Source: Clostridia bacterium
Lineage (GTDB): Bacteria; Bacillota; Clostridia; Christensenellales; UBA1242
Reading direction: 5' to 3'
DNA length: 51,576 bases
NCBI GenBank assembly: GCA_017938505.1
Contig: JAGBBH010000079.1
Span: 1-51,576 of the forward strand
The notes beneath the pieces were generated by a model. It did no database searches and was not told where the DNA came from. It was given only the letters and a program-made list of their open reading frames with translations. Of this stretch, positions 1 to 19,900 are shown piece after piece (the stretch's first letter is position 1; every line of letters starts with the position of its first letter). The position numbers and the translations under genes are program-made.

Positions 1-70
1 CAAAAGAAGCAAAAATCCACACTCTTTCTCCTCAGAATCGACTTATCCCCGCCAATTTAGAAAGCACAAA

Positions 71-454
71 TCAAAATAATCCACAACCATTTCTCTTATA
101 TAACCCCATAAGATAATATTCTGAAACGAGTTTAATAATTTCAGCCGTTGTAGGTTTATGCCCAGACTTAAAGACTTCCATACCAAAGAGGTCATTGACT
201 GAATTAAACCCTTTTTGATTATATGTAAAAGAAATTGCATTTTGAATGTTCGCTTCCACCCTAAACGCGCTTTTTGCATTGCAAACTTTTGCAACCTTTT
301 CAAACAGTTTATTTAAGTTGTAAACCAACATAGGTTCTTCAACAACCATTTCAATTGCAACAGACAAGTAAGAAAAACCAATTAAGTCGCATTTTATGCC
401 AATTCTAATCAATGTCAATCTCACAACCTTTGAAACTTCGTTCAATTCTCCCAT
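71..454 (-). CDS. Stand-alone Spo0A C-terminal (effector/DNA-binding) domain-like protein, 127 aa
   Basis: The ORF has GGAGG 4 nt before the ATG. It aligns by eye over its whole length with the Spo0A effector domain (IGI..IGFSYL..AIEMV...SAFRVE.NIQNAI....G..SVNDLFG.....HKPT.AE.I). There is no receiver domain. Confidence 0.7.
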   Translation of the reverse strand: MGELNEVSKVVRLTLIRIGIKCDLIGFSYLSVAIEMVVEEPMLVYNLNKLFEKVAKVCNAKSAFRVEANIQNAISFTYNQKGFNSVNDLFGMEVFKSGHKPTTAEIIKLVSEYYLMGLYKRNGCGLF

Positions 455-708: not shown

Positions 709-799
709 GGAAATGTACCGAAGAGGTCGCACCGGGACGCACTCGAAATGCGTTTGTCGAGCAATCGGCACGTGGGTTCGAATCCCACCATTTCCGCCA
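709..799 (+). tRNA. tRNA-Ser (anticodon CGA), type II with long variable arm, CCA encoded
   Basis: 91 nt. The acceptor stem is GGAAATG/CATTTCC and the D stem is 3 bp. The anticodon stem is ACGCA/TGCGT with loop CTCGAAA. The T arm is GTGGG-TTCGAAT-CCCAC. The discriminator is G, followed by CCA. Confidence 0.9.
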
Positions 800-862
800 A
801 GTGGGATTGAGTTAAACTCTAATAACGTTGACTGAAAGTCGCTTTTTAACAAAGGAGACAAA

Positions 863-1558
863 ATGCAAGAAAACACAAAAATACTTATTGACAGAATAGA
901 TTCTCTTACAAAATTATGTGATAATGATAAATTTGGAGATGCATACGCAAAAATAGTCTTCGAAGTCGAACAGCTATGTATCGCTATTGCAGGAAATGAG
1001 TCCTTAGAATATGAGGAATTCTCATCTATAGTAAATTCTAGAATTGCAGGCTCTACACAAGTAGCATATCTTAGAGGTGTTTTAGGAGCATTAAGAAATA
1101 GAATTGTAATTGAAGGGATAAAGACCACTAATACATTTAATTGGGACAACCTATTACATCCCATTGTTTATAAAACTTCTTTCAAAAAGTTGCTGGATGG
1201 TTATTATTCTGATGCTGTTGATTCTGCAATTAAAGAAATGAATTTTAAGGCAAAAAATCTGTATAAAAAATATAAAGGAAAAGAACTTGATGGGGCAGAT
1301 TTATTTGCAAATATTTTTAATAACGATAAAGATAAAACGTTGTTAATGGCGGGTGGCAAATTAGAAAGTCAAAGTAATAAGGATGAACAAGAAGGGTATA
1401 GATTTCTTTTTATGGGATTATGGAAAGGACTTAGAAATCCAAACGCTCATACAAACATGTCAATTACAAAACAACAAGCAATCGAAAGGCTTATATTTAT
1501 AAGTATGTTAATGTATAAATTTGAAGAATGTATTAAAAATTCTGGATTAATCGAATAA
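863..1558 (+). CDS. HEPN-type protein of the TIGR02391 / Hypoth_Ymh / Abi_C-like family, 231 aa
   Basis: AAAGGAG RBS. The C-terminal half matches the family pattern (LDGADLF..F....DEQEGYRFLFMGLWKGLRNPNAH....IT.QQAIERL...SML) and contains the Rx4H motif RNPNAH. I recognise no family for the helical N-terminal ~110 aa. Confidence 0.7.
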   Translation: MQENTKILIDRIDSLTKLCDNDKFGDAYAKIVFEVEQLCIAIAGNESLEYEEFSSIVNSRIAGSTQVAYLRGVLGALRNRIVIEGIKTTNTFNWDNLLHPIVYKTSFKKLLDGYYSDAVDSAIKEMNFKAKNLYKKYKGKELDGADLFANIFNNDKDKTLLMAGGKLESQSNKDEQEGYRFLFMGLWKGLRNPNAHTNMSITKQQAIERLIFISMLMYKFEECIKNSGLIE

Positions 1559-1573
1559 AATAAGGAGATAAAA

Positions 1574-2458
1574 ATGGCTGAATTAAAATTATTTAAATTA
1601 AATAACGAAGTTAAGGAATTAAAATCAAGTAGTGCCACTATTGAAAAAGAATTACAAAACATTATTGAAAAGAACATGTTTGAGTTCTTTGGTGTAAGAT
1701 TCTTGCAAAGCGAATATCGAATTGACAATGGAAGAATGGATTCTATTGGAATTGATGAAAATAACTGCCCTGTTATTTTCGAATATAAATGCCACTCAAA
1801 TGAGAATGTAATCAATCAGGGATTATTTTATTTGAATTGGTTACTTGAACACAAAGCCAACTTTAAATTGTTAGTCATTGAAAAACTGGGTATTAAAGCG
1901 GCTGAAGAAATAGATTGGTCAATGCCAAGGGTTATTTGTATTGCAGGAGATTTCAATAAATATGATGAAGAAGCAATAAAGCAAATAAATAGAAATGTAT
2001 CTTTAATCCGATACAAAAAATTTGAAAACGATTTATTATTATTCGAACTTTTAAACACTAATACAGTTGCTCCATTACAAGATGAAAAAGAAGTTTCTAA
2101 AAAACAATTAAACAAAACATTCTCAGAACAATACAAATCAGCACCTGAAAAATTAAAAAAAATATATGACAATCTTAAGGATTACATATTCTCTTTAGGT
2201 GATGACATCTCTGAAAACACTTTGGTTTTATATACTGCATTTAAAAAAATCAAAAACTTTGTTACTGTGGAAATATATCAGACAAAGATTCTTATCAATT
2301 TTAGACTAAACCCTGATAACTATGAATTAACAGAATCTTTAAGAGATGTAAGAAACATTGGGCATTGGGGTTGTGGAGATTTGCAATTAACTATCAAATC
2401 CGAAGAAGAAGCCGAATTGGCAAAAAATTTAATCAAAGATGCGTACGAGATGAATTAA
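1574..2458 (+). CDS. NucS/DUF91-like PD-(D/E)xK endonuclease with DUF5655-like C-terminal domain, 294 aa
   Basis: The ORF starts 16 nt after the previous stop and has an AAGGAG RBS. GRMDSIGIDENNCPVIFEYK....NQGLFYLNWL gives the D...ExK plus QxxxY nuclease signature. The C-terminal ~120 aa resembles DUF5655; this is recalled, not searched. Confidence 0.65.
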   Translation: MAELKLFKLNNEVKELKSSSATIEKELQNIIEKNMFEFFGVRFLQSEYRIDNGRMDSIGIDENNCPVIFEYKCHSNENVINQGLFYLNWLLEHKANFKLLVIEKLGIKAAEEIDWSMPRVICIAGDFNKYDEEAIKQINRNVSLIRYKKFENDLLLFELLNTNTVAPLQDEKEVSKKQLNKTFSEQYKSAPEKLKKIYDNLKDYIFSLGDDISENTLVLYTAFKKIKNFVTVEIYQTKILINFRLNPDNYELTESLRDVRNIGHWGCGDLQLTIKSEEEAELAKNLIKDAYEMN

Positions 2459-2600
2459 AAAATGTAAATTTCCTAAGCAAAATGCTTGAGTAAAAAACAA
2501 ATATCTATTACTATGTAATAAATAAAAATATGGCTATGGTGCGTTCAACTGAGGTTCAACTCGTGCCGCCAAAAATACATATTAAGAGGGAGATATTTTT

Positions 2601-3227
2601 ATGGACTACATCAGAGTTTCGGCTTCATATCTTTTTAATATTAAAATAGACAATAAATACTTGCTTGTAAAAAGCGAAAGAAGAAATCAGTTTCAACCCA
2701 TAGGCGGTTGTTATAAATACTTCCCAGAAGCAGAAAAGTTTTTATCGTCCATTGGGGCAACGCCTGAAAAAAAATCTAATGGAATAGGCAGTTTAATGGA
2801 TTTAAGATTGATAATTCCACAACAACAACTTGATTCTTTTATTAAGTGGTTTACTAGCGGAGAAAATAGAGAAACAACTTATGATAGAGAATTTAACGAA
2901 GAACTTATTTCGTTAATACCAAAAGAAAAACAACAATTATTTAATATAATTCAAGCGAAAAAACAAAACAGTGGTTCATTTGATATATTTTTCGATAAAG
3001 AAAAAAACCTAAAGTCAATAAAACCAATGGATATCATTTCTATAGCCTTATCGTCTGAACAAAAATGTGTTATATCTGATGTTTGTAAACATAACCCAAA
3101 TTTGCTAATAGTAACAAAAGAAGATATTTTAAATGGTTACACAACTTTAAAGGACAACACGAAAGTGAAAATTGGTGAACACACTAGAAATATATTAAAA
3201 TTACCCATTCAAACCAAGGAACTATAA
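2601..3227 (+). CDS. NUDIX-fold protein, resembles the SMODS-associated NUDIX family, 208 aa
   Basis: GAGGGAG RBS. The pattern FQPIGGCYKY ... DLRLII....L..FIKWFTSGENRE...DREFNEEL fits a split Nudix box (G...RE.xEE). The family assignment is from memory of the pattern only. Confidence 0.45.
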   Translation: MDYIRVSASYLFNIKIDNKYLLVKSERRNQFQPIGGCYKYFPEAEKFLSSIGATPEKKSNGIGSLMDLRLIIPQQQLDSFIKWFTSGENRETTYDREFNEELISLIPKEKQQLFNIIQAKKQNSGSFDIFFDKEKNLKSIKPMDIISIALSSEQKCVISDVCKHNPNLLIVTKEDILNGYTTLKDNTKVKIGEHTRNILKLPIQTKEL

Positions 3228-3462
3228 ATTTATTAATAATTTTAATTCGCCTAGCACAAATAAATGTTTTTGCGTTAGTGTCGAAGCCCCATATCTCGCC
3301 AATCAATCTACAAATCAATAATTGCTTGTTTTTTATATAAAAACTAGCGATTATGCTTGCTAGGACATAATAAAATTTTTGACAACCTCTCGTTTTTGAA
3401 ATTGTAGTCTAAAAACATCTTAAACAAGGTTATTTACAAACAATACCAACATTTTAATTTTC

Positions 3463-3471
3463 TGATATAAT
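3463..3471 (+). promoter_or_regulatory. Extended -10 promoter (TGaTATAAT) for the PHP gene
   Basis: TG at 3463-3464 and TATAAT at 3466-3471, 22 nt upstream of the ATG at 3494. An AGGAGAA RBS lies in between. Confidence 0.4.
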
Positions 3472-3493
3472 ATAGAAACATTAGGAGAATATA

Positions 3494-4408
3494 ATGGAAG
3501 AATTTTGTGATATGCATATACACACAAACCACTCTGACGGCAACCTGTCAGGCAGTGAATTGTTGCAATATGCCGCAAGGCGTGAACTAAAAAAACTGTC
3601 AATAACCGATCACGACTGCGTTGATTTTTATCTAGATGAAAAAATTGTAGATAGGTTAAAAGATTTTGACTATGTAACAGGGTGCGAATTTGTCTGCTCT
3701 TATGGCAATGTCCCAATAGAAATACTAGGCTATGGCATTGATGTCATAGGTGCAAAAGAATATCTAAACATTTATGGAATAAATGAAAACAAGATAGAAA
3801 AATATAGAAGCGACCACACGCCTAAAGTCTTTGCAAAATACGGAATCATTCTAGACTACGACCCTAAAAGCATAGACTTTACACAAAAATGCCCTATGGT
3901 GCTTGAACAATTGTATGAATCTGTTTTGCGAAATCAAGAAGCAGTAAATTTTCTGGAAAAAGAAAACCCTAGATTGCTACAAAGCGTATCAACATTTTTA
4001 AGAGAAGGATTAAACAACCCGGCATCTAAAATTTTTATTGCTCCACACACTTTGTATCCTTCTTATGACAAAATAACAACTCTTATCAAAAAACTAGGTG
4101 GGATTTCTTTCCTTGCTCACCCATATCAATATGGAGATAATATGGAAAGAGTGCTAGAGGGCACAAAGAATTCTGTAAACGGCATAGAGTGCTACCACTA
4201 TACAACAACAGAAAAAGCCCAAACGGAATACTTAAAGAGCTTTTGCGAAAAGAACGGCCTAATGATATCTGGCGGCAGCGATTTTCATATAAAAGACCCA
4301 ATGGGCAAAGACTTGTTAAACAAGCTAAATGTCCCTGCTCAATATTTTGACAAAATAAAAACAAGGGTTAAAACAATAACAAAAACCAATCTGGCGAAAA
4401 ACTTTTAA
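3494..4408 (+). CDS. PHP-domain metal-dependent phosphoesterase, 304 aa
   Basis: The N-terminal DMHIHTNHSDG motif is followed by ITDHD, and later by FLAHP and GGSDFH motifs typical of the PHP family. Confidence 0.8.
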   Translation: MEEFCDMHIHTNHSDGNLSGSELLQYAARRELKKLSITDHDCVDFYLDEKIVDRLKDFDYVTGCEFVCSYGNVPIEILGYGIDVIGAKEYLNIYGINENKIEKYRSDHTPKVFAKYGIILDYDPKSIDFTQKCPMVLEQLYESVLRNQEAVNFLEKENPRLLQSVSTFLREGLNNPASKIFIAPHTLYPSYDKITTLIKKLGGISFLAHPYQYGDNMERVLEGTKNSVNGIECYHYTTTEKAQTEYLKSFCEKNGLMISGGSDFHIKDPMGKDLLNKLNVPAQYFDKIKTRVKTITKTNLAKNF

Positions 4409-4531
4409 AGAATAAAACAAAATACTCAGTTGACCACCAGATATTCTATTGCGGCTTAAATTGTGCTCTAGCATTTTTGTTGTTTAACAAATTTTTAAAT
4501 AATTTATATCACACATTTAGGAGAATTAGAA

Positions 4532-5248
4532 ATGAGTTTAAAGGTTTTTGGCGGTGTTCATTGGTTATATTTGGCAATAACATTGACATTAAGTGCAGTT
4601 GGTCTGTTTTGTGCAAAAAAATTTGCAAAATCAGAAAAAAGCCAAAAGATAGTTTTAAAATGCATTGCAGGAATGTTATTAATTTGGATTTTGATTAACA
4701 GATTGTCGCAAGTGTTTAGATATTCAGAAGTTAGATGGAATCAAATTATACCTGACAGTTTCTGCGGAATGACAAGTCTTGTTTTGTCATTATCAGTTCT
4801 TCTCGGCAAAAAAGACAATCCTGTATTGCACTTCACTTGGTTCTTGGCAATCGTAGGAGATGTCATTACTCTTGCTTATCCAACATTCCTTGACCAAGGT
4901 TCGTCTGTGTTCTATTTGCCAACAATCTCAGGCCTTTTGCACCACAGTTTGTCTTTGGTAATGGTTGTCTCCCTCTTGCTTTTTAACCAAATTCACATAA
5001 CATACAAAAAATGGTATTGTTCTTTGTTTGGATTTACAGCATATTTCACTGTTGGTGCCTTTCAAATGTCAGTGTTTGGTTTTGGTGATGCTTTCCACAT
5101 TGTCGAACCGATGCTTTCAGGCACCCCACTGACCGCTTGGGTGATTGCCCCAATATACATAGTCGGCTACGGTTCGGTGTTGCTAGCAATTGAATTAATC
5201 CGCAGACATAAAACAAAAAAGCAACAAAACAGCATTGAAACAACCTAA
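4532..5248 (+). CDS. Multi-pass integral membrane protein (possibly TIGR02206/YwaF-like), 238 aa
   Basis: AGGAGAA RBS and at least 6 hydrophobic segments. The N-terminal F..VHWLYL pattern is reminiscent of the YwaF family, but this is weak. Confidence 0.55.
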   Translation: MSLKVFGGVHWLYLAITLTLSAVGLFCAKKFAKSEKSQKIVLKCIAGMLLIWILINRLSQVFRYSEVRWNQIIPDSFCGMTSLVLSLSVLLGKKDNPVLHFTWFLAIVGDVITLAYPTFLDQGSSVFYLPTISGLLHHSLSLVMVVSLLLFNQIHITYKKWYCSLFGFTAYFTVGAFQMSVFGFGDAFHIVEPMLSGTPLTAWVIAPIYIVGYGSVLLAIELIRRHKTKKQQNSIETT

Positions 5249-5263
5249 TCATATCCAAAAAAG

Positions 5264-5290
5264 ACCCGCATCTCACTTGCGAGTTTTTTT
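5264..5290 (+). terminator. Rho-independent terminator
   Basis: Stem ACCCGCA/TGCGAGT (7 bp, one mismatch), 7-nt loop, then T7. Confidence 0.5.
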
Positions 5291-5511
5291 GTTTGTCATC
5301 AAACTTTCCTTTCTAACCAACTTTAATATTTGCACAGGGGCAAAGGCCTCCTAAAAAACATCTTACCATTCAACAATTGCCAATCACAATAAAATTGTTG
5401 ATTTGTTTTACAAATCTAGAACAACTAACTTTATCCCCCATAAGAACTACTTTTAAAAACAACAAAGCATCCTTTAAATCCAGTTTTTGACTTGCTAGCC
5501 ATTTATGTTTT

Positions 5512-5520
5512 TGTTATAAT
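5512..5520 (+). promoter_or_regulatory. Extended -10 promoter (TGtTATAAT)
   Basis: TG at 5512-5513 and TATAAT at 5515-5520, 18 nt upstream of the ATG at 5539. An AAGGAGA RBS lies in between. Confidence 0.4.
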
Positions 5521-5538
5521 AGAACAAAGGAGATAACA

Positions 5539-6645
5539 ATGAATAAAACTTTTGACAAAGAAAGAGAACTAACCTCTTGGTGTGAGTTGATTTTTAAATA
5601 TACGAAAGAAAGAGTTGAAAACGACAGTGTTGCCACAAGATGGATTTTTGATAGAGCAACCCACGATGAATGGGTTTTGGCATTATTTCCTAAACATTTT
5701 GCAAGTGTTAATGCTTACAACCAATTCTTTGAACTAACGGGGCAAGACATTCGAGAATTCAATTGGAACAGCACTGTAACGACTAAAGACAAACAAACTA
5801 TAATCGTTCACCAATTTTTCGTTGACGAGCATCTCACAACCGCCCACGATTTTAAATATGAACTGATTGAATTGTTTAATCAAGGAAATTTGTCCGTTGA
5901 CAAAATCAAAGAACTAATTTCAATGCAAAGATTGTGCTGGATAACAAAAGAAGAAAACAATAAATTGACACAATCTGGGTTTAAAAATCATAGGAAAAAT
6001 CCACTTGACGCTTACCAAACCTGTGGCATAGAAATTTATGATAAAGACAACTGTGATTTAAACATAATGATTCCAACATCACGCAAAACAAATTCTCCAC
6101 ATTTAGAATCAAGCAACCAAATCTTAAAAAACATTCAGAATTTTCTCAACACCCACAAAATTAATGATATGACTTACAATTTAAATTCCTATGCAGGTTC
6201 AAGTTATGCTTGGATATTGAAATTTAACGATTATATGATAAATGTGAGAGTCAAAAAAGAACGATTAAAAGATATTTGTTTATACATTTCTGGCAAAGAT
6301 GCAAAAAGAAAATTTCAAACCTTAAAATCCAAACAACATCAAATTGAATCAGAACTTGGTTATACCCTCGCCTGGGACGAAAACAAAGACAAACAAGCGA
6401 CACGAATAGGTCGATTCTTTAAAAATGCAGACTTATCAACAACCTTTGAACTCTCTCACAAAGATATATGTTTTGATTTCAATGTTGAAGACTGTGAATA
6501 TGCGAAAAAAGTTGCTCAAGAACTGGTCAACTTTGTCAATGTCTTCTGCTCCTATTTTGTTTTTGCAGACAAAGCAGAAGGTTCTAGAAAAAGAAAAATT
6601 CGCAAAAAAAACATTGAAAACTTTTTCTCCGATGAAGAAATATAA
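5539..6645 (+). CDS. Hypothetical protein with unassigned N-terminal domain and DUF4268-like C-terminal region, 368 aa
   Basis: Good RBS and a strong terminator downstream. The C-terminal LKSKQHQIESELGYTLAWDENKDKQATRIGRFF...EDCEYAKKVAQELVNFVNVF fits the DUF4268 pattern (IE.elG..L.W......sRI). I recognise no family for the N-terminal ~200 aa. Confidence 0.6.
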   Translation: MNKTFDKERELTSWCELIFKYTKERVENDSVATRWIFDRATHDEWVLALFPKHFASVNAYNQFFELTGQDIREFNWNSTVTTKDKQTIIVHQFFVDEHLTTAHDFKYELIELFNQGNLSVDKIKELISMQRLCWITKEENNKLTQSGFKNHRKNPLDAYQTCGIEIYDKDNCDLNIMIPTSRKTNSPHLESSNQILKNIQNFLNTHKINDMTYNLNSYAGSSYAWILKFNDYMINVRVKKERLKDICLYISGKDAKRKFQTLKSKQHQIESELGYTLAWDENKDKQATRIGRFFKNADLSTTFELSHKDICFDFNVEDCEYAKKVAQELVNFVNVFCSYFVFADKAEGSRKRKIRKKNIENFFSDEEI

Positions 6646-6687
6646 ATAAAAAACTCCAACATAAATAATCAATCCACTTTCTAATTT

Positions 6688-6722
6688 AACCACATTAACC
6701 GTAATGTGGTTTCTTTTTTTTG
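6688..6722 (+). terminator. Rho-independent terminator
   Basis: Perfect 9-bp stem AACCACATT/AATGTGGTT with a 6-nt loop, followed by TCTTTTTTTTT. Confidence 0.8.
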
Positions 6723-6832
6723 TTTAGTTTTCTTTTTCATACAATTCCAGCAATCAGTTTTTCTAAAACCTAGAATTTTATAATCTAAATAAGAAACATT
6801 CAATGCTTTACACATAAATCTTTATCAATCAT

Positions 6833-6861
6833 TTGTTCAAGTTGAACAAAATATGTATAAT
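6833..6861 (+). promoter_or_regulatory. Putative promoter of the helicase gene (possible leaderless transcript)
   Basis: TTGTTC (6833-6838), a 17-nt spacer, then TATAAT (6856-6861). The second ATG (6868) lies 6 nt after the -10 box. Neither ATG has a Shine-Dalgarno sequence in front. Confidence 0.35.
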
Positions 6862-9468
6862 AAAAATATGAACGATTTTAATTCAATAAATTTTTTAGGA
6901 ACTTTTAGAAGTTATCAACAAAGAGTGCTAGATGCAAGCGATAAATATTTGCGTAACAACAAAATCCACATTGTCGCCGCACCCGGCAGCGGCAAAACAA
7001 TTTTAGGTTTGGAACTTATCAGAAGATTAAACTCGCCTTGCCTTGTCTTGTCGCCAACAAACACAATTCGTTATCAATGGGGAGACCGCTTTGAAAAAAT
7101 GTTCTTGCCAAAAGGGGCAAATGTAGATGACTATGTTTCTTTTGACCTGTTCAATGTCAAACCAATACCCTCAATCCCATACCAAGCCTTACATTCTGCA
7201 ATATATAAAATTGCATATATTGATGACGATAAACAAAAAATCGACTACTCTGATATCGACCTGTTTAAGTTGGTAAACGACTATGGAATCAAAACAATTT
7301 GCGTTGATGAAGCACACCACTTACAAAACAAATGGCAAAAAGCATTGGAGATTTTCATTGGCGGACTGAAAAAAGATGTAAAAATAATCGCACTCACAGC
7401 AACACCACCTTATGATGCCTCAAAACAAGAATGGAACAGATACATAAAAATTTGTGGCGAAATTGATGAGGAGATTTTTGTTACAGAACTGGTCAAAGAA
7501 AAGAACTTATGCCCTCATCAAGATTATGTTTACCTTAACTATCCAACTGAAGAAGAAAGCAATTTAATAAATAAGTATAAAACCACAATATTAAATTGCT
7601 TAAAATCTCTTAAAGAACTGAATTTCTTTGACAAAATATCAAAAAAGGTTTTCAGTTTGATTGCTTCAAACAGAAGCGAAATTTTAGATGAAAGCGACCA
7701 GTATCTAACAATTTTTACTTTGCTTGACAACATAGGAATTGAATATAACAAAAACAAACTCAAAAAATTCTTTGGGGTCAAAGTTGCTCCGCAGACCATA
7801 ACCTCATTTGAAATTGCTTTAAATCTCTTGCTTGACAATGAATTTATTCTTTCAAAACAAGAAAAAAACAAGATTCTATTGCATTTGAAAAAATTTGGAC
7901 TGATTGAAAAAAACAAAGCACACCTTCAAAACAACGCAAAAATCGAAAAAACTCTTATGCTTTCATTGGGAAAACTCGACAGCATAACAAAAATTGTTGC
8001 TGCTGAAAGCGAAAACTTAAAAACTGATTTGCGAATGTTGATTCTAACAGACTTCATTCAAAAATCAACTCTTCAAAAAATCGGAACCTCTGATTTTTTC
8101 AAAGAAATAAGCGTTGTAAGCATTTTTGAAACTATCAGACGAAAAAACAGTAACCTCAAACTTGCAATTTTAAGCGGTTCTCTTGTTGTTCTTCCTACAG
8201 AACTAAAAGACGACATAAAACTTCTTTTAGGTGAAAAGGCGGAAAAAGTAACAACAAAACAAATCAATTCAACCCCTTACAGCGAATTCGTTTTCAATTT
8301 AAGCAATAAAGAAAAAGTTTCCGTTGTCGGTTCCCTGTTCGAAAAAGGCAAAGTAAATCTCATTGTTGGCACCAAATCTTTGCTTGGCGAAGGTTGGGAT
8401 TCCCCTTGCATCAATTCGTTGATTATGGCAAGTTTTGTTGGCAGCTTTATGCTCTCAAATCAGATGCGAGGCAGAGCAATCAGAACACACAGTGCAAACC
8501 CAAACAAAACCGCAAACATTTGGCATTTGGTAACACTTGAACCTAAAGATGGAGCCTCAAAAGAAGTTTTTTGCGATGAAGAAACATCTTCAGATTATAA
8601 AACCCTCAAAAGAAGGTTTTCCTGTTTTGTTGGTCCAAATTACACAACAAACAACATTGAAAGTGGAATAGAAAGGTTGACAATTTTGCAAGACTATTAC
8701 ACACAAGAGAGTGCAAAAAAAATAAACAAAAATATGGAAAACTTGGCAACAGACCGAAAAACAATGACAAACAAATGGATTCAAGACAAGGGTTCTGACA
8801 TTATGTATATGCAAAGCACTGTTCCGTTTGGCAGAACACCAAAGGTTCTAGGTGCACTTGAATTGTTTAAAAGCCTCTTTCTCTTGCTTTTAAATGTTGC
8901 ACTTGTCGAAACAATCATAAGATATTTACCAAAAACATTAATCATACTTCCACTCGTAATGCTGTCTGCATTTATGTTCGCAATCTTTTCATTAAAATTT
9001 TTCAAGTTTATCAAATTTTCATTTGCAAAACCATTTATCAAATCTTTATCCAAAGACCTTCTTCATCTTCTGAAAGCCCTCAAACATTTGCCAGCGGAAG
9101 GGAAATTGCTTGTTGAAAAAAATAAAAGCGGAGTTTCCGTAGTTTTAAAAGTTGACAACATAAAGCAACAAAAACTGTTTTTAAACACTCTTCAAGAACT
9201 GCTTTCTCCAACACAAAAACCAAGATATATTATTTGTTCAACATTCTTATGGCGCTTGATTTTTAGATATTCATATAATGTTCCGAACCTTGTGGCCCAA
9301 AACAAAAATCTAGCGACTTTCGCTAGAAAGAGACTACACACATTGTCCCCTTCAAAATTGATATATGCAAATGACAGAAGAAAAAGAAATGATGTTTACA
9401 AATGCATCACTCAAAATTATCTAAAAAGTTCAAGCAAGCCAATAATAAACAAACAAACATCAATCTAA
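6853..9468 (+). CDS. Superfamily-2 (ResIII/XPB-Rad25-like, COG1061-type) DEAH helicase with C-terminal TM hairpin and extra domain, 871 aa (866 aa if it starts at 6868)
   Basis: Helicase motifs are present: RSYQ; motif I AAPGSGKT; Ia LSPTNTIRYQW; II VDEAHH; III LTATP. The C-lobe has LIVGTKSLLGEGWDSP and motif VI QMRGRAIR. Two hydrophobic segments lie at aa ~667-717 (nt ~8851-9003). They are followed by ~150 aa that I cannot assign. Confidence 0.8.
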   Translation: MYNKNMNDFNSINFLGTFRSYQQRVLDASDKYLRNNKIHIVAAPGSGKTILGLELIRRLNSPCLVLSPTNTIRYQWGDRFEKMFLPKGANVDDYVSFDLFNVKPIPSIPYQALHSAIYKIAYIDDDKQKIDYSDIDLFKLVNDYGIKTICVDEAHHLQNKWQKALEIFIGGLKKDVKIIALTATPPYDASKQEWNRYIKICGEIDEEIFVTELVKEKNLCPHQDYVYLNYPTEEESNLINKYKTTILNCLKSLKELNFFDKISKKVFSLIASNRSEILDESDQYLTIFTLLDNIGIEYNKNKLKKFFGVKVAPQTITSFEIALNLLLDNEFILSKQEKNKILLHLKKFGLIEKNKAHLQNNAKIEKTLMLSLGKLDSITKIVAAESENLKTDLRMLILTDFIQKSTLQKIGTSDFFKEISVVSIFETIRRKNSNLKLAILSGSLVVLPTELKDDIKLLLGEKAEKVTTKQINSTPYSEFVFNLSNKEKVSVVGSLFEKGKVNLIVGTKSLLGEGWDSPCINSLIMASFVGSFMLSNQMRGRAIRTHSANPNKTANIWHLVTLEPKDGASKEVFCDEETSSDYKTLKRRFSCFVGPNYTTNNIESGIERLTILQDYYTQESAKKINKNMENLATDRKTMTNKWIQDKGSDIMYMQSTVPFGRTPKVLGALELFKSLFLLLLNVALVETIIRYLPKTLIILPLVMLSAFMFAIFSLKFFKFIKFSFAKPFIKSLSKDLLHLLKALKHLPAEGKLLVEKNKSGVSVVLKVDNIKQQKLFLNTLQELLSPTQKPRYIICSTFLWRLIFRYSYNVPNLVAQNKNLATFARKRLHTLSPSKLIYANDRRKRNDVYKCITQNYLKSSSKPIINKQTSI

Positions 9469-9539
9469 TCTTCTCTTTGCGGATAAACCTTTCGCAACTT
9501 CACCTCCTCTTGCAATTGTTTTGCAATTATCACAAATAA

Positions 9540-9586
9540 AACAACTCAAATTAAATGCCAAAGATTTAAATCGAGTTGTTTTTTTA
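9540..9586 (+). terminator. Rho-independent terminator of the helicase gene
   Basis: 17-nt arms AACAACTCAAATTAAAT / ATTTAAATCGAGTTGTT pair at 15 of 17 positions, with a 7-nt loop and a T-run after. Confidence 0.7.
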
Positions 9587-9587
9587 T

Positions 9588-9616
9588 TTGATTTTTCAAG
9601 GCAAATAATTTATAAT
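9588..9616 (+). promoter_or_regulatory. Promoter of the HD-domain gene
   Basis: TTGATT (9588-9593), a 17-nt spacer, then TATAAT (9611-9616). An AGGAGG RBS precedes the ATG at 9641. Confidence 0.5.
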
Positions 9617-9640
9617 TCAATCAAGAAAAGGAGGATAAGA

Positions 9641-10303
9641 ATGAAATTAGATTTTGTTAGAAAACCAATAAAAAAATATATACAGGAAGAAATAAAACCT
9701 CTCTACAAAACCTTCGACAAAGCACACAATCTTTCACACTTTAAATTCGTAACGGAAAATTGCATAACTTATGCACAAGAACTTATCAATCAAGGATACG
9801 ACATTAATCTTGAAATTGCCTATCTAGTTGGAGCCCTACACGACATAGGAATTGTCCACGGACGAGAGGGACACGCAAAAAATTCAGCAAATATGGTAAG
9901 ACTCGACAAAACACTTCCATCATTTTTCTCTCGCAAAGAAATTGAACTGATTGCTGAAGCAGTCGAAGACCATTCTTCACACTTGTCTTACGAACCTCGT
10001 AGCATTTATGGAAAAATTGTTGCAGATGCCGACAGAAACAACACGACATATTTAGTTTTCTCAAGACCAATCAAATTTGGTTTAAAACACGAAACATTTA
10101 GGACAAGACAAGGCCACATCGACAGAGTTTACGAATTCGTTCAAGATAAATTTGGCAGAAATGGTTATGTAAAATATTGGCTCAACATTCCACAAACAAC
10201 ACAATCTCAACAAGAGGTTTGGAACCTGCTTGACAACGAAGAAAAATGCAAAAGTTACATTGCTGGCATTTTCGACGAACTAACCAAAGGCAAACTTAAT
10301 TAA
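9641..10303 (+). CDS. HD-domain phosphohydrolase, 220 aa
   Basis: The start was moved to the ATG at 9641, which has AAAGGAGG upstream. The longer track ORF would run through a terminator and a promoter. Motifs seen: H (LSHF), HD (GALHDIG), DH (VEDHSSH) and D (ADADR). Confidence 0.75.
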   Translation: MKLDFVRKPIKKYIQEEIKPLYKTFDKAHNLSHFKFVTENCITYAQELINQGYDINLEIAYLVGALHDIGIVHGREGHAKNSANMVRLDKTLPSFFSRKEIELIAEAVEDHSSHLSYEPRSIYGKIVADADRNNTTYLVFSRPIKFGLKHETFRTRQGHIDRVYEFVQDKFGRNGYVKYWLNIPQTTQSQQEVWNLLDNEEKCKSYIAGIFDELTKGKLN

Positions 10304-10357
10304 ATCGACCAAACCTTTTACATCTTTGACAAAATAAAAAAAATTGGAGAAAAAACT

Positions 10358-10834
10358 ATGAAACGCAAAAATATATCAAGCGGAACATATAACCATTGTT
10401 CAAATTGCAAAATTAAAAAGAATTGTTGTTGCGATTTTGATGACGAAATTGACAACATTGTAACAACTGTTGCAGAAAAAGAAAAAATCATAGGAAGACT
10501 TGGAACCTCTGTCGAGAAATATTTTCGTCCTATCAATGAAGAAGCTTTCAACATTTTAAACATAGATTCTGTTTGCCCGTTTTATAAAAACGGTTGTTCA
10601 ATTTATGACATTCGTCCCAGCGATTGCAAATTGTTCCCTTATGACCTAAAGGAAATTGATGGCAAATATTTCTTAATTAAATATAACCTGCCTTGTGGAA
10701 GCAAAAATGTTAATGAAAATGTTGATGCGGTTGTCAAAGAACTGCTTCCTATCATCACAACCTATACAGATAAAAAAATTGAAGAAAAGGTCAACAATCT
10801 TCCTTTTGATATAATTAAAGAAATCAAAATTTAA
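10358..10834 (+). CDS. YkgJ-family Cys-cluster (zinc/iron-chelating) protein, 158 aa
   Basis: N-terminal CSNCKIKKNCCC cluster, then CPFYKNGCSIYDIRPSDCKLFPY. This is typical of the UPF0153/YkgJ family. Confidence 0.65.
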   Translation: MKRKNISSGTYNHCSNCKIKKNCCCDFDDEIDNIVTTVAEKEKIIGRLGTSVEKYFRPINEEAFNILNIDSVCPFYKNGCSIYDIRPSDCKLFPYDLKEIDGKYFLIKYNLPCGSKNVNENVDAVVKELLPIITTYTDKKIEEKVNNLPFDIIKEIKI

Positions 10835-13923: not shown

Positions 13924-14997
13924 TTATTCCACAAAATCCGCAAGTTTTTTCAATCTGTTTGGATGCTTCAATTTTCTAAGCGCCTTTGCTTCAATTTGTC
14001 TGATTCTTTCTCTTGTAACAGAGAATTCTCTGCCAACTTCTTCCAAAGTTTTTTGACGACCATCGAGAAGTCCATATCTTTGTCTAATAACTTCTTGTTC
14101 TCTTGGTGTAAGGGTGTCAATTACTGCTAAAAGTTGCTCTCTCAACAGTGTTTGTGTCGCACTCTCAATTGGAGACTTTGCACTTTCATCAACAATAACA
14201 TCGGCCATTTTTCCGTCGTCTTCTTCTCCCATTGGAGTTTCAAGCGAGATTGGGTCTTGTGCAGTTCTTTGAATTTCCATAACTTTTGCAACAGAAAGGT
14301 CCATTTCTTTTGCAATTTCTTCAATTGTTGGTTCTCTGCCCAAGCGTTGCATAAGAACTCTTACAACCTTAACATATTTGTTGATTGTTTCTACCATATG
14401 AACAGGAATTCTGATTGTTCTTGATTGGTCAGCCATTGCTCTTGTAATTGCTTGTCTAATCCACCAAGTCGCATAAGTTGAAAATTTAAATCCTTTCGTG
14501 TAATCAAATTTGTCAACTGCCCTCAAAAGTCCCATATTTCCTTCTTGAATAAGGTCAAGGAATGACATTGAGGTTTTTCCGACATATTTTTTTGCAACAC
14601 TAACAACCAAACGCAAGTTTGCTTCACAAAGCACTGATTTTGCATATTGGTCGCCTTGCATTGCTCTTTTTGCCAAATCTCTTTCTTCATCAGCACTGAG
14701 AAGGGGAACTTTTCCAATGTCTTTCAAATACATCTTGACAGGGTCATCAACACTTACCGACATAACAATGTCAGAAAAGTTGTCTTTATATAAATCTTCA
14801 TCATTTGTCTTGATGATTTTGATTCCCCTTTTGTTTAAAAGTTCCAAGAACTTTTCAACATTTGACGCATTCTCACCAACCTTAAGCAAAGGGAAATAAA
14901 TTTCATCTTCGCTGATTGACCCTTTTTTCATTGCAAGCGCCTGCAATTTATCATATACCAATTTGATTTTTGCCAAATCTTGTTTATCTTCTGACAT
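13924..14997 (-). CDS. rpoD: RNA polymerase primary sigma factor
   Basis: Region 2 reads [13 protein letters not shown], region 3 is present, and region 4 reads [27 protein letters not shown]. It overlaps the dnaG stop by 14 nt, as in the classic dnaG-rpoD operon. Confidence 0.95.
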
Positions 14998-16753
14998 TGA
15001 ATTCCTCCAAACTTTTATTTTTTAACTGAATAGCAACTTTTCCAAGTTCTCTTGCAATTTCTGCACGCCTTGTTAAATCCGCACAGTTTCTATATTCTTC
15101 ATTGAGTTTTTCTTGTTTTTTTCTCAATTTTGCTTCTGCCAATTTCCAGACACATTCTCTGAAATATTTTTCCGCATCCTTTTCAAACTCAACAAAATTG
15201 AAATTTAAAATATCCATCAAAAATTTGTCTTCACTTGCGCCTTCAAAATCAAAAATCGCAGACAAAGGAAGATTTTTATCAATTATTTCCAAATAAGAAG
15301 CAAATTCTTCCAACAACTTTGCATAATCAATCCGCAAATCTTTCCATTCTTTTTTGTGAAGAAGCGTAGCCAAAATAAATTTACTTGCTTTCTCATCGCC
15401 CTTTTCTTGTTCTTTTGGAGCAGGCAATGGTTGCTCCTTAATCACAACTTTTTGCGGGGTTGATGAAATATCTCTCCTAAGCACATCAATTGGAATTTTT
15501 GTTAAATCTCTAACAATTTCCAAATAAGGTTCATAAAGCGTAGGACTCTCTAGTCGTTTAATTTGCGCCAACACCTCTTTAACAAATTTGTTCTTTTCTT
15601 CAGGGACATTTAAGTTGTGCCTAGATTTATAATAATCAATCAAAAATTGCATGTAAGGTTTTGCATTATCAATCATTTCCTGCAATTTTTCTTTTCCGTA
15701 AATGTTTAAAATTTCATCAGGGTCTTTTCCTTCTGGCAAAGCAACAATCTTCAAATCCACATTTTCATCTCTAAACATTTCAATTGCTCTGAGAGTTGCT
15801 TTCGTTCCAGCCCCATCGCCATCAAAACAAACCACGATTTTGTCGCAATATCTCTTAAGTTCTGTAACATGGTCTTTCGTAAGAGCAGTTCCCATACACG
15901 CAACGGTAGATTTAAATCCACCCTTGTGCATTGCAATGACATCCATTTGCCCTTCAACAAGAATTATCTTGTCAAGCAAATGTTGTTGTTTTTGTGCTTT
16001 TAAGATGTTAATTCCAAAAACCACCTTTCCCTTTTGGAAAACCATAGTTTCAGCCGTGTTTAAATATTTTGCAAAATCAGTTTTTTCAAGTGCCCTAGCA
16101 CTGAACCCTATACATTCATTAAACGAATTAAAAATAGGGAACACCAGTCTTCCCGCAAGAACATCATAAATGCGGTTATTTTTTTTAGCACAAACACCAG
16201 CATCAAGCATATCTTTTTCAGAAAAGCCTTTGGCCCTTAAATATTGCACAAGTTCAGTCCAGTTTTTAGAATAACCAATCTTAAAGTCTTCAAGTTCTCG
16301 CCTTGTAAACCTTCTCATCTTTATGTAGTCTTGTGCAGGCTTTGCTTCCGTGCTGTAGAGGTTTTCAATGTAATGCTTGTAAGTATATTCCAATACAGAC
16401 AACACTCTTTCTTTTGTCTTTTTAACTTCTTGATGTTTTTGTGAAGATTGAAATTCTGGAAGTTGCATTCCGACCTTGTCCGCCAAAAGTTTGACCGCAT
16501 CCATAAATTCGATATTTTCCATCTTCTGCACAAATTTAATAACATCTCCAGATTCTTTGCAACCAAAACAATGATAAACCCCATCTTCGCCATTTAAAGA
16601 AAACGAAGGTGTTTTTTCATTATGAAAAGGACAGCAAGCCCAATATCTGCTACCCTTTTGTTGCAGTTGAAGATAGTTTGAGGCAATTGAAATGAGGTCA
16701 TTCTTACGCTTCAATTCCACAAGCCACTCAACAGGAAAACCTTTATTTTGCAA
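14984..16753 (-). CDS. dnaG: DNA primase
   Basis: The zinc-binding motif is [14 protein letters not shown]...YHCFGC. The TOPRIM region reads LVEGQMDVI ... [11 protein letters not shown] start preceded by GGGAG. Confidence 0.95.
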
Positions 16754-16993: not shown

Positions 16994-19900
16994 TTATTTG
17001 TTCATTCTGCCAACAAAACGACCAGTCTTCTTTTTGCGGTAGAACCAAACAAATGCCACCACTCCAAAAATTGCAACCGCACCAGACCCGAAAGCAATAA
17101 CGACATTTTCATTACCCTGTCCTTCGCTTGCACTTTCCGCAGGCGCCGCCTTATATGTAAAATATCCAGGACTGCCCGCAGCATCAATCCTCGCATATGT
17201 CGCATCTGTGTAACTTGAATTAAATGCAGTTCCATTTCCACCAACTAAGGCTTTAGTAGATTGAAACATCTGTATTGATTCTGTAACGGCAGAAATCGAC
17301 CATTTGTCAGAGACATATATTGTTCTTAAAGACGAACAACCAGAAAACATATATCGCATATTTGCAACATTTGAAGTATCAAAATTTGACAAATCTAAAC
17401 TTGTTAAAGATGAACAAAAATTAAACATATAACCCATATATGTAACATTTGAAGTATCAAAATTTGACAAATCTAAACTTGTAAATCTATAGCAACCAGA
17501 AAACATACTTCTCATGTCTGTAACTTTTGAAGTGTCCCATCCTGATAAATCCAAACTTGTAAGTTCCATCTTTCCCATAGCAGCTCCAAATACAGTGACC
17601 ATATTTATCACATTTGAAGTGTCAAAGTTAGAAACATCTAAACTTGTTAGTTTTACACAATTACTAAACATAAGACTTATATCTATCGCTTTAGAAGTGT
17701 CAAAATTAGAAACATCTAAACTTGTTAAACTTTGGCAATTATAAAACATTGAAGACATGTCTATTACATTTGAGGTGTCAAAGTTAGAAACATCTAAACT
17801 TGTTAACTTTTGGCAACTATAGAACATTCCATACATATCTGTTACATTTGAAGTATCAAAACTAGATATATCAAGACTTGTCATTGACTTGCAATACATA
17901 AACATATGTTTCATATTTGTAACTTTAGAAGTATTAAAAGTTGACAAGTTTAAACTAGTTAAAGCATGTTGAAGCCCCAAAATTGATGTTGTAGAAGAAG
18001 TTGCCGCAAACATAAATTCCATATTCGTAGCGTTTGAAGTATCAAAATTGTAAAACTCAATTGCCGTTACCGCCCAAAAAGCGTATAAAGCATAAGAAGC
18101 GTCAACAAGTGCCATTTTCTTGTTTGAAAGCACATAGACCGTTGTGCATCCAGCCCCATAGATTTTTGCCATACCGCTTTCATCTGCAGTCGCATCAACA
18201 CCTGCCAACCCAGAAATAACATTTTCCCCATCTACATAATAAACTTCTTCAGCAGTTTTGTTTCCATTTTCATTGCGATAAAAATCAAACACGATTTTTT
18301 GTGCAGCCTTATCTACCGTCGTATATTCACTCACATTCTTCATAAGCGCATTTAGTTCTTTCCCTGCTTTAAGAAAAACAGGATACTTGTCTGCAATATC
18401 TGTAAAATATCCAGGAAGACCATCTTTGCCGTCAATCCTCGCATAACTCGCGTCTGTGTAACTATCACTATATGTCGTCCCATTTCCACCAACCAAGGCA
18501 AAGCAAGCATCAAACATTCCGTACGAACTCGTAACAGCAGAAGTTGTCCACTTATCCGAAACATAAACAGTTTCCAACAAACAACTATATCCAAACATAT
18601 AGTCCATATCACAAACATTTGAAGTATCAATCCCCGACAAATCTAATTCTGGGACATTCAAATCCGAGTTGACATAACAATATTTGATTGCAGATGCAAA
18701 CATAGAATTTAAATTTTTTACTGCTTTTGCCTTAAAACCACTTAAATTAAGTTCCACTGCTGCACCAACATGTCCACCAAACCAACTGAACATATAGGAC
18801 ATATCTTCCACTTTTGTCGCATCCAAATTCGAAAGGTTCGCATAAACTTTATCCCCATACACTTCATCTGCAAAGGATTCAAACATATGAGACATATTAA
18901 TCACATTTGAAGTGTCAAAACTTGAAATATCTGCCACAACATCACCTGAAGCCTCACTCTTACAATTAAACATATAACTCATATTGGTTGTCTTTGAAGT
19001 GTTAAAGTTAAAGAATGACTCTAGTGATTTTATTCCACCAAAATTTTGAAACATATAACTCGCATCTTCATTCATCATCATTTCTTTTGCAGAAAGAACA
19101 TAAACCGTTGCTCTGCCTGCGTTATAAATCAACGCCTCTCCATTCCCTCCAGCGGTTGCGTCAACCCCTGTCATTCCAGAGATAACATTCGTTCCGTTCA
19201 CATAATAAACTTTCGCTTGTGTTGTGTTTCCGCTTGAATCACGATAATAATCAAACACAATCTTTTGCACAGTCCTATTTGAAGTCGAATATGATGAAGC
19301 ATTTTTCATAAGGGCATTTAGTTCTTGCCCAGTTTTGAGAGCGACCTTATACTTTTCCGCAACATCGGTAAAATATCCAGGAAGACCATCTTTGCCGTCA
19401 ATCCTCGCATATGTTTTGTCTTTGTAACTTGAACTATATTTTGTTCCATTTCCACCAACCAAGGCAGAGCAACCATTAAACATATATGTTGAACTCGTAA
19501 CTGCAGAAGTCGTCCACTTGTCTGAAACATATACAGTTTTTAGATATCGACAATTTTGAAACATATATGTCATATTTGTAACTTTTGAGGTATCAAAACT
19601 TGATAAATCCAAACTTAAATTTGTTGCACTATATCCGCAAGATTGAAACATATATCTCGTATATGTTACACTTGATGTGTCAAAACTTGACAAATTCAAA
19701 CTTAAACTTGTTGCACTATATCCGCAACATGAAAACATAGACCCCATATCTATAACTTTTGCTGTATTAAAACTTGACAAATCCAAACTTAAATTTGTTG
19801 CACTATATCCACAATAATAAAACATAGACGACATATTTGTTACACTTGATGTATCGAAACTTGACAAGTCCAAAGTAAAATTGCTTGCACTATATCCACA

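Follow-up and report, generated by a model that had tools for sequence, protein, structure and literature searches.

Adjacent Ymh-type HEPN and PDC-S18 nuclease genes in a tRNA-adjacent defence islet of a Clostridia bacterium are probably independent single-gene modules

Introduction

Do two closely spaced, co-oriented genes encoding a HEPN protein and a restriction-endonuclease-fold protein constitute one defence system, or do they merely lie side by side? The question is raised by contig JAGBBH010000079.1 of the Clostridia bacterium assembly GCA_017938505.1, of which we analysed positions 1 to 51,576 (hereafter the window, 51,576 nucleotides (nt) in length), a low-GC (~33%) segment of a bacterial chromosome. 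Next to a tRNA-Ser gene, open reading frame (ORF) 1 encodes a HEPN protein of the Ymh/TIGR02391 type, and ORF2 encodes a putative nuclease of the PDC-S18 family (Table 1). An earlier note, made from the sequence alone, had considered the two genes a candidate for a new two-gene defence or toxin-antitoxin-like module. We found that their homologues are not linked in other taxa, and we favour, with a probability of roughly 0.78, the reading that ORF1 and ORF2 are two independent single-gene defence modules that adjoin each other within a small defence islet (~800–10,800). This reading is built on family membership, conserved motifs, folds, and the absence of conserved linkage.

Results

The two genes do not travel together

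Linkage was examined in both directions, using 55 PDC-S18 loci (one genome per GTDB species, with flanks of up to 6 kb) and ~70 HEPN loci, 60 of which came from a metagenome scan and 10 from exact look-ups. A hidden Markov model (HMM) built from ORF1 homologues identified a Ymh HEPN gene within 6 kb of PDC-S18 in none of the 55 loci, and this model was sensitive, as it picked up HEPN relatives elsewhere down to ~32% identity. Conversely, PDC-S18 was found near the HEPN gene in none of the ~70 loci. The pair was found again only on three contigs, in all of which ORF1 is identical and the gene order unchanged. When the first 11 kb of the window were compared by blastn with all fetched loci, homology covered either 847–1558 (HEPN) or ~1548/1574–2460 (PDC-S18) and never extended across both. 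The two families are also of very unequal size, with more than 6,300 clusters of ORF2 homologues at 90% identity and 30 clusters of full-length ORF1 homologues. After this two-way test, the hypothesis of a conserved pair was rejected. The HEPN gene and the PDC-S18 gene are separately shuffled single-gene cassettes.

The neighbourhoods of ORF1 orthologues lead to the same picture. At 47–68% identity to ORF1, the neighbours differ every time, giving nine other distinct contexts. The HEPN gene follows a type I restriction-modification (R-M) system and precedes a gene for a DUF2971-like membrane protein (locus L001), forms the final gene of a DpnII-like R-M operon (L126), precedes a flavin reductase gene (L134), or stands solo with nothing co-oriented downstream (L004, L007, and L138). 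With 0 of 55 and 0 of ~70 loci linked and the HEPN gene in nine other contexts, the proposal of a new two-gene module is not supported. The positions directly after R-M genes in L001 and L126 recall PrrC and RloC, RNases that are carried with type I R-M as a second line of defence. The likeness is one of analogy only, as ORF1 is without the ABC-ATPase domain and the window contains no R-M system to guard.

These contexts also bear on the toxin-antitoxin part of the proposal, in which the HEPN RNase would be the toxin and the ORF2 protein would serve as antitoxin or regulator in place of the MNT nucleotidyltransferase. A HEPN toxin ordinarily requires a partner that neutralises it, the two ORFs are tightly spaced, and the ORFs between positions 71 and 21,667 include no member of a nucleotidyltransferase family, as would be present in a HEPN-MNT (type VII) toxin-antitoxin system. 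However, close HEPN orthologues have no co-oriented downstream gene (L004/L005 and L138) or have unrelated ones, implying that the protein is tolerated without ORF2. The more than 6,300 ORF2 homologue clusters lack this HEPN as a companion, and the fully conserved nuclease active site of ORF2 would be unexpected in a dedicated antitoxin. We consider a toxin-antitoxin pair most improbable.

ORF1 is a HEPN protein with a rare N-terminal domain

Residues 98–224 of ORF1 match the Pfam family PF09509 (Hypoth_Ymh) with an E-value of 4.9e-24 and 84.9 bits (cutoff 25), and TIGR02391 with 5.9e-15 and 55.5 bits (cutoff 39.45). The catalytic motif RNPNAH, read from the sequence, lies within this domain match, and its residues R191, N192, P193, and H196 are invariant among 28 homologues (alignment A1). 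The earlier identification of a TIGR02391-type HEPN protein by this motif was thus correct, but the Abi_C-like block proposed around it was not recovered, since PF14355 gave no match at E ≤ 0.1 in ORF1. Among the PADLOC models, PD-Lambda-3_B (8e-13) and Aga_HEPN (7e-10) match the HEPN half alone. The AlphaFold2 (AF2) model of ORF1 is all-helical, with a predicted local distance difference test score (pLDDT) of 88.8. A Foldseek search of the PDB with this model returned nothing at E < 0.1, with the HEPN domain of Csm6 at E ~4. The HEPN assignment therefore rests on sequence, because Foldseek finds no significant relative in the PDB. Sequence searches against solved structures likewise gave nothing significant for ORF1 or ORF2.

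Ymh has been described as a catalytically competent HEPN family occurring as "solos and fusions... in operon with R-M" (Anantharaman et al. 2013, PMC3710099). ORF1 resembles other members in being small, with a variable N-terminal domain and a C-terminal HEPN domain bearing the invariant Rx4H motif, and its orthologues adjoin R-M operons, in keeping with that description, whereas the copy in the window has no adjoining R-M genes. Residues 1–97 match none of the described Ymh partner domains (AbiJ-NTD, AbiTii, and paraMORC). In a HMMER search over 1.84 billion representatives, the HEPN domain was found in 1944 proteins and residues 1–95 in only a handful. Judged from these searches, the N-terminal helical domain (residues 1–97) is a rare, lineage-specific module, which is typical of Abi-type HEPN proteins with variable N-terminal domains. 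No HEPN homologues were found in phage genomes. ORF1 is a putative metal-independent RNase.

ORF2 is a PDC-S18 protein with a NucS/Shedu-like nuclease domain

Residues 1–293 of the 294 residues of ORF2 match the PADLOC model PDLC04946 for PDC-S18 with an E-value of 4.6e-124, that is, over the full length of the model. ORF2 had thus already been catalogued as a single-gene candidate. PDC denotes "phage defence candidate", a collection comprising 145 candidate systems of one or several genes, derived by guilt-by-embedding from genes lying inside Hma, BREX, DISARM, and type I R-M systems (Payne et al., bioRxiv 10.1101/2024.01.29.577857). Relatives of ORF2 conform to this definition, being embedded in type I R-M, type II R-M, and BREX operons, and ORF2 itself differs in not being embedded. 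In the literature searched, no paper names PDC-S18, and the single paper on DUF5655 was irrelevant. The match gives ORF2 a family name, not a function, and an anti-phage role, as far as sequence goes, is that of a candidate.

In an alignment of 32 ORF2 homologues with identities as low as 40%, at least 90% keep the catalytic-core residues G53, R54, D56, E70, K72, Q82, and Y86, and all keep Y71. The GRxD...EYK...QxxxY signature read earlier stands in its residues, but 13 rather than 12 residues separate D56 from E70, the same D-x13-ExK spacing as in NucS. Two proteins from Bacilli metagenome-assembled genomes (MAGs), the most divergent homologues at 39–41% identity (L060 and L061, alignment A3), have lost the catalytic D56, E70, and K72 and retained DUF5655. 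They may be inactivated or repurposed PDC-S18 variants.

Is ORF2 a NucS-like nuclease, as the earlier note had suggested? The NucS_C family PF01939 matches residues 24–94 below its cutoff (1.3e-3, 19.2 bits against 24), and the NucS model NF003270 reached 20.9 bits against a cutoff of 216. The AF2 model (pLDDT 73) places the N-terminal domain closest to NucS/EndoMS in Foldseek (2vld and 5gke, E ~1e-4), followed by Shedu SduA (8ps5 and 8ti9, 1.5e-2 to 2.7e-2). The nuclease fold is supported despite the sub-cutoff NucS_C match because the model matches NucS/EndoMS. NucS/EndoMS shares the PD-(D/E)xK fold but carries an N-terminal DNA-binding domain and a C-terminal nuclease domain, whereas in ORF2 the nuclease is N-terminal and DUF5655 C-terminal. 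ORF2 is not a NucS orthologue, since it reaches the cutoff of neither family HMM and has no NucS N-terminal domain. The resemblance to Shedu is at the level of the fold only, with no SduA_C (DUF4263, PF14082) match and an hhalign probability of 0.3.

As for the C-terminal domain, the earlier suggestion of DUF5655 or DUF4268 was right in its first half. DUF5655 matches above its cutoff, whereas DUF4268 is not in ORF2 and sits in another ORF of the island (Table 1). No sequence relation of ORF2 to that DUF4268 protein or to Shedu was found. The DUF5655 region is modelled with a pLDDT of 84–96 and matches YjbR (2fki; probability 0.98, target TM-score 0.51), 3fov, and 3dnx in Foldseek. YjbR represents the "double-wing" DNA-binding fold, and the modelled YjbR-like fold makes DUF5655 of ORF2 a candidate DNA-binding or reader domain.

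PDC-S18 genes often lie in restriction-modification operons and in two loci in BREX

Recognisable R-M genes adjoin PDC-S18 in at least 29 of the 55 loci. A D12 (Dam-like) methyltransferase (MTase) gene directly precedes it in 12 loci, seven of which show the full order of D12 MTase, PDC-S18, DpnII/PDDEXK_11 restriction endonuclease (REase), and N6_N4 MTase. In L021, the MTase stop codon overlaps the PDC-S18 start codon. PDC-S18 lies among the hsdM/S/R genes of type I R-M systems in ~13 loci, is inserted between hsdS and hsdR on Acinetobacter plasmids, stands between brxB and brxC of BREX in 2 loci, and occurs alone on staphylococcal plasmids. The copy in the window is not embedded in R-M or BREX, and the island contains no methyltransferase. 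A tally of 111 non-R-M neighbours with Pfam and PADLOC gave heterogeneous families, among which BrxA/BrxB, PDC-S01, helix-turn-helix (HTH), and SLFN_AlbA_2 proteins occur 2–3 times each. A recurrent HEPN or other partner of PDC-S18 was therefore rejected.

One locus connects the two families. The proteins of the R-M operon in L126 are 78–93% identical to those of PDC-S18-carrying operons, but an Mrr_cat gene occupies the PDC-S18 slot, and the HEPN gene stands at the 3' end. From this orthology it follows that the ORF1 and ORF2 families are accessory cargo of one mobile R-M cassette family. In the DpnII-like cassette (D12 MTase, REase, and N6_N4 MTase), the accessory slot comes after the first methylase and before the endonuclease; PDC-S18 fills it in many genomes (L021, L024, L027, L013, and L041 were compared) and Mrr_cat in L126.

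PDC-S18 proteins that are 74–84% identical (L011–L033) occur in MAGs labelled Clostridia, Erysipelotrichales, Paludibacteraceae (contigs of 97–139 kb), Parasutterella, and Bifidobacteriaceae (short contigs). For the short contigs, binning errors are possible. This distribution suggests that PDC-S18 has recently been transferred between phyla in gut communities. In an unrelated Clostridia MAG of 45–55% GC, PDC-S18 lies ~1 kb downstream of a tRNA-Ser(cga) gene, in a patch of 33–39% GC (L020, 4919–7488). It is preceded on the opposite strand by an XRE-type HTH gene and followed by a gene for a DUF6548 protein (1.2e-40) with an RNQLSH (Rx4H-like) motif. In phage genomes, PDC-S18 gave just 4 matches, which is weakly informative.

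This distribution weighs against another explanation, namely that ORF2 is a housekeeping mismatch repair endonuclease of the NucS/EndoMS kind without a role in defence, whose adjacency to the HEPN gene would be meaningless. Its best structural matches are indeed NucS/EndoMS structures, and a weak NucS_C match exists. Yet the scores with the NucS models fall far short of what is required (19.2 bits for a cutoff of 24, and 20.9 bits for one of 216), ORF2 has DUF5655 instead of the NucS N-terminal DNA-binding domain, and PDC-S18 is patchy, plasmid-borne, and embedded in R-M or BREX operons. Together with the high identity across phyla and the GC patch around the L020 copy, these features are typical of mobile defence cargo and not of a core repair gene, and we hold the repair explanation to be very unlikely.

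The tRNA-Ser gene borders a variable defence islet

The coordinates of the two genes, their 63-nt distance from the tRNA-Ser gene to ORF1, and the strong ribosome-binding sites noted earlier were all confirmed, the latter being AAGGAG located 7–8 nt 5' of the ATG in both ORFs. Their common orientation on the plus strand was confirmed as well, and the spacing between them is 15 intergenic nt. The tRNA-Ser(cga) gene is the left border of a variable defence islet. An integrated element at this tRNA gene was considered and dropped: a second copy of the tRNA 3' end, as an att site would provide, is missing downstream, and the scanned island ORFs gave no match to an integrase family. No structured RNA or terminator was detected in the intergenic regions flanking the two genes.

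The defence context proposed earlier for the two genes was borne out, as both families are defence-associated. The remainder of the islet (2601–10834) is also defence-like and matches no complete named system (Table 1). Its first gene encodes a solo SMODS-associated NUDIX protein, and no cyclase or reverse transcriptase was seen nearby. Core genes in the window include rpoD-dnaG (13,924–16,753, minus strand), addAB, recO, and an iscS/nifS-like gene. Directly upstream of the tRNA-Ser gene, on the minus strand (71–454), a 127-residue protein consists only of the Spo0A C-terminal DNA-binding domain (PF08769, 5.9e-18), without a receiver domain. Beside dnaG (16994–21667, minus strand), a 1557-residue protein with ~10 DUF285 repeats (PF03382, 1.3e-152) and leucine-rich repeats is a putative large surface protein.

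Table 1. Positions of the tRNA gene, the two genes with their domains and motifs, and the remaining genes of the islet in the window
Feature	Positions	Residues	Strand	Basis or remark
tRNA-Ser (anticodon cga)	709-799		+	ARAGORN; Rfam RF00005, 52.9 bits
ORF1, HEPN gene	863-1558	231 aa	+	
Rx4H catalytic motif RNPNAH of ORF1	1433-1450	R191-H196	+	Read from sequence, within HEPN-domain match
ORF2, PDC-S18 gene	1574-2458	294 aa	+	
Nuclease domain of ORF2, NucS/Shedu-like PD-(D/E)xK		~24-160	+	Foldseek, weak NucS_C match
Catalytic core of ORF2	1730-1831	G53-R54-x-D56 ... E70-Y71-K72 ... Q82-x-x-x-Y86	+	
Disordered linker of ORF2		162-179	+	AF2 model
DUF5655 domain of ORF2	2126-2452	185-293	+	PF18899, 1.5e-12, above cutoff
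Solo SMODS-associated NUDIX protein	2601-3227			PF18167, 2.3e-44; also PADLOC CBASS "2TM effector" and DRT "RTasNUDIX" models
PHP phosphoesterase	3494-4408			
TMEM164-family membrane protein	4532-5248			
DUF4268 protein, PDC-S11-like C-terminus	5539-6645			
ResIII/DEAD helicase	6853-9468			
HD-domain protein	9521-10303			
CxxCxxCC protein (weak)	10358-10834			

Discussion

The combination of a HEPN protein and a DNA nuclease had been thought to lack a named precedent. This is not the case, since PD-lambda-3 from E. coli ECOR28 is a validated system listed as "Nuclease, HEPN" (Vassallo et al. 2022; PMC9519451 supplement). Its protein A is a remote PD-(D/E)xK protein, protein B combines AbiJ_NTD3 with Hypoth_Ymh (HHpred 99.9%), and protein C is a beta-propeller (PMC9519451). 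The system acts by abortive infection (PMC13190303). ORF1 and ORF2 could accordingly be read as a functional two-gene abortive-infection system of this type, with a PDC-S18-type nuclease in place of the original one. The sensing of infection, for example through DNA ends or modified DNA, would fall to one protein and RNA cleavage to the other, or both would attack phage nucleic acids.

We compared the pair with PD-lambda-3 using the PADLOC HMMs and the published HHpred table. ORF1 matches the B model (8e-13), and the two genes are co-oriented at a distance of 15 nt, but the match covers only model positions 143–266 of 270, corresponding to the HEPN half, and Pfam shows no AbiJ_NTD match in ORF1. 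Neither ORF2 nor any other scanned island ORF matches PD-Lambda-3_A. The gene order is opposite to that in PD-lambda-3, and the listed beta-propeller protein is absent in the window. Furthermore, the window pair is not conserved as neighbours in the 55 and ~70 loci, with homology breaking at the gene borders, and chance adjacency is to be expected because no domain is commoner in defence islands than the PD-(D/E)xK nuclease. The two genes thus do not belong to PD-lambda-3, yet PD-lambda-3 is their closest named analogue, and we judge a functional pair of this type unlikely.

Several points nevertheless weigh against two independent modules. PD-lambda-3 does unite a REase-fold nuclease and a Ymh HEPN in one operon. 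In L137 (2527–4510), a HEPN gene encoding a protein 63% identical to ORF1 is followed 76 nt downstream by Shedu sduA, another PD-(D/E)xK nuclease gene, with an AAA_15/AAA_21 ATPase gene before it; from these two cases, this HEPN may have a loose functional affinity for nucleases. ORF1 and ORF2 are probably co-transcribed here because they are co-oriented and 15 nt apart, with no terminator and no convincing promoter or promoter consensus in the gap, and a functional pair would look alike, even though co-transcription does not imply shared function. The closest HEPN orthologues lie mostly on short metagenomic contigs, so that the sample of contexts is small (~10 distinct). Finally, the RNase and DNase activities of the two proteins, their triggers, and their anti-phage function are predicted roles. 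By analogy with PD-lambda-3, the Ymh HEPN and the adjacent nuclease might act together as a modular abortive-infection system in which the nuclease partner is freely exchangeable (PDC-S18 here, Shedu in L137, and REases in L126), a reading to which we give a small chance. If it were true, DNA-targeting defence nucleases would be coupled to the HEPN RNase, which would act as a general back-up executioner.

Under the reading of two independent modules, ORF1 would be a stand-alone Abi-type Ymh HEPN protein functioning as a dimeric, metal-independent RNase. The N-terminal helical domain would probably gate this activity and keep it silent until a phage cue is received, whereupon the protein would cut host or phage RNA, with abortive infection as the outcome. 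ORF2 would act as a DNA endonuclease of the NucS/Shedu PD-(D/E)xK type, with the YjbR-like DUF5655 domain at its C-terminus providing the targeting, and elsewhere PDC-S18 would supply R-M or BREX systems with an accessory second nuclease. Because an Mrr-type enzyme can fill its slot, one may reasonably start from the hypothesis that PDC-S18 has a type IV-like, modification-dependent specificity. Both families would be shuffled as single-gene cassettes that happen to be adjacent here, neither needing the other.

In summary, our analysis places one further Ymh-HEPN gene and one further PDC-S18 gene in a defence islet beside a tRNA gene, and it disposes of a misleading candidate for a new system. 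In a widely transferred DpnII-like R-M cassette, PDC-S18 has a defined accessory slot after the Dam-like methylase and before the endonuclease, and the same cassette family can bear this HEPN at its 3' end. The Mrr-type nuclease in the same slot of an orthologous cassette is a testable hint that PDC-S18 might be a type IV-like second nuclease. Were PDC-S18 shown to defend, its more than 6,300 homologue clusters would make it a single-gene system of very wide distribution.

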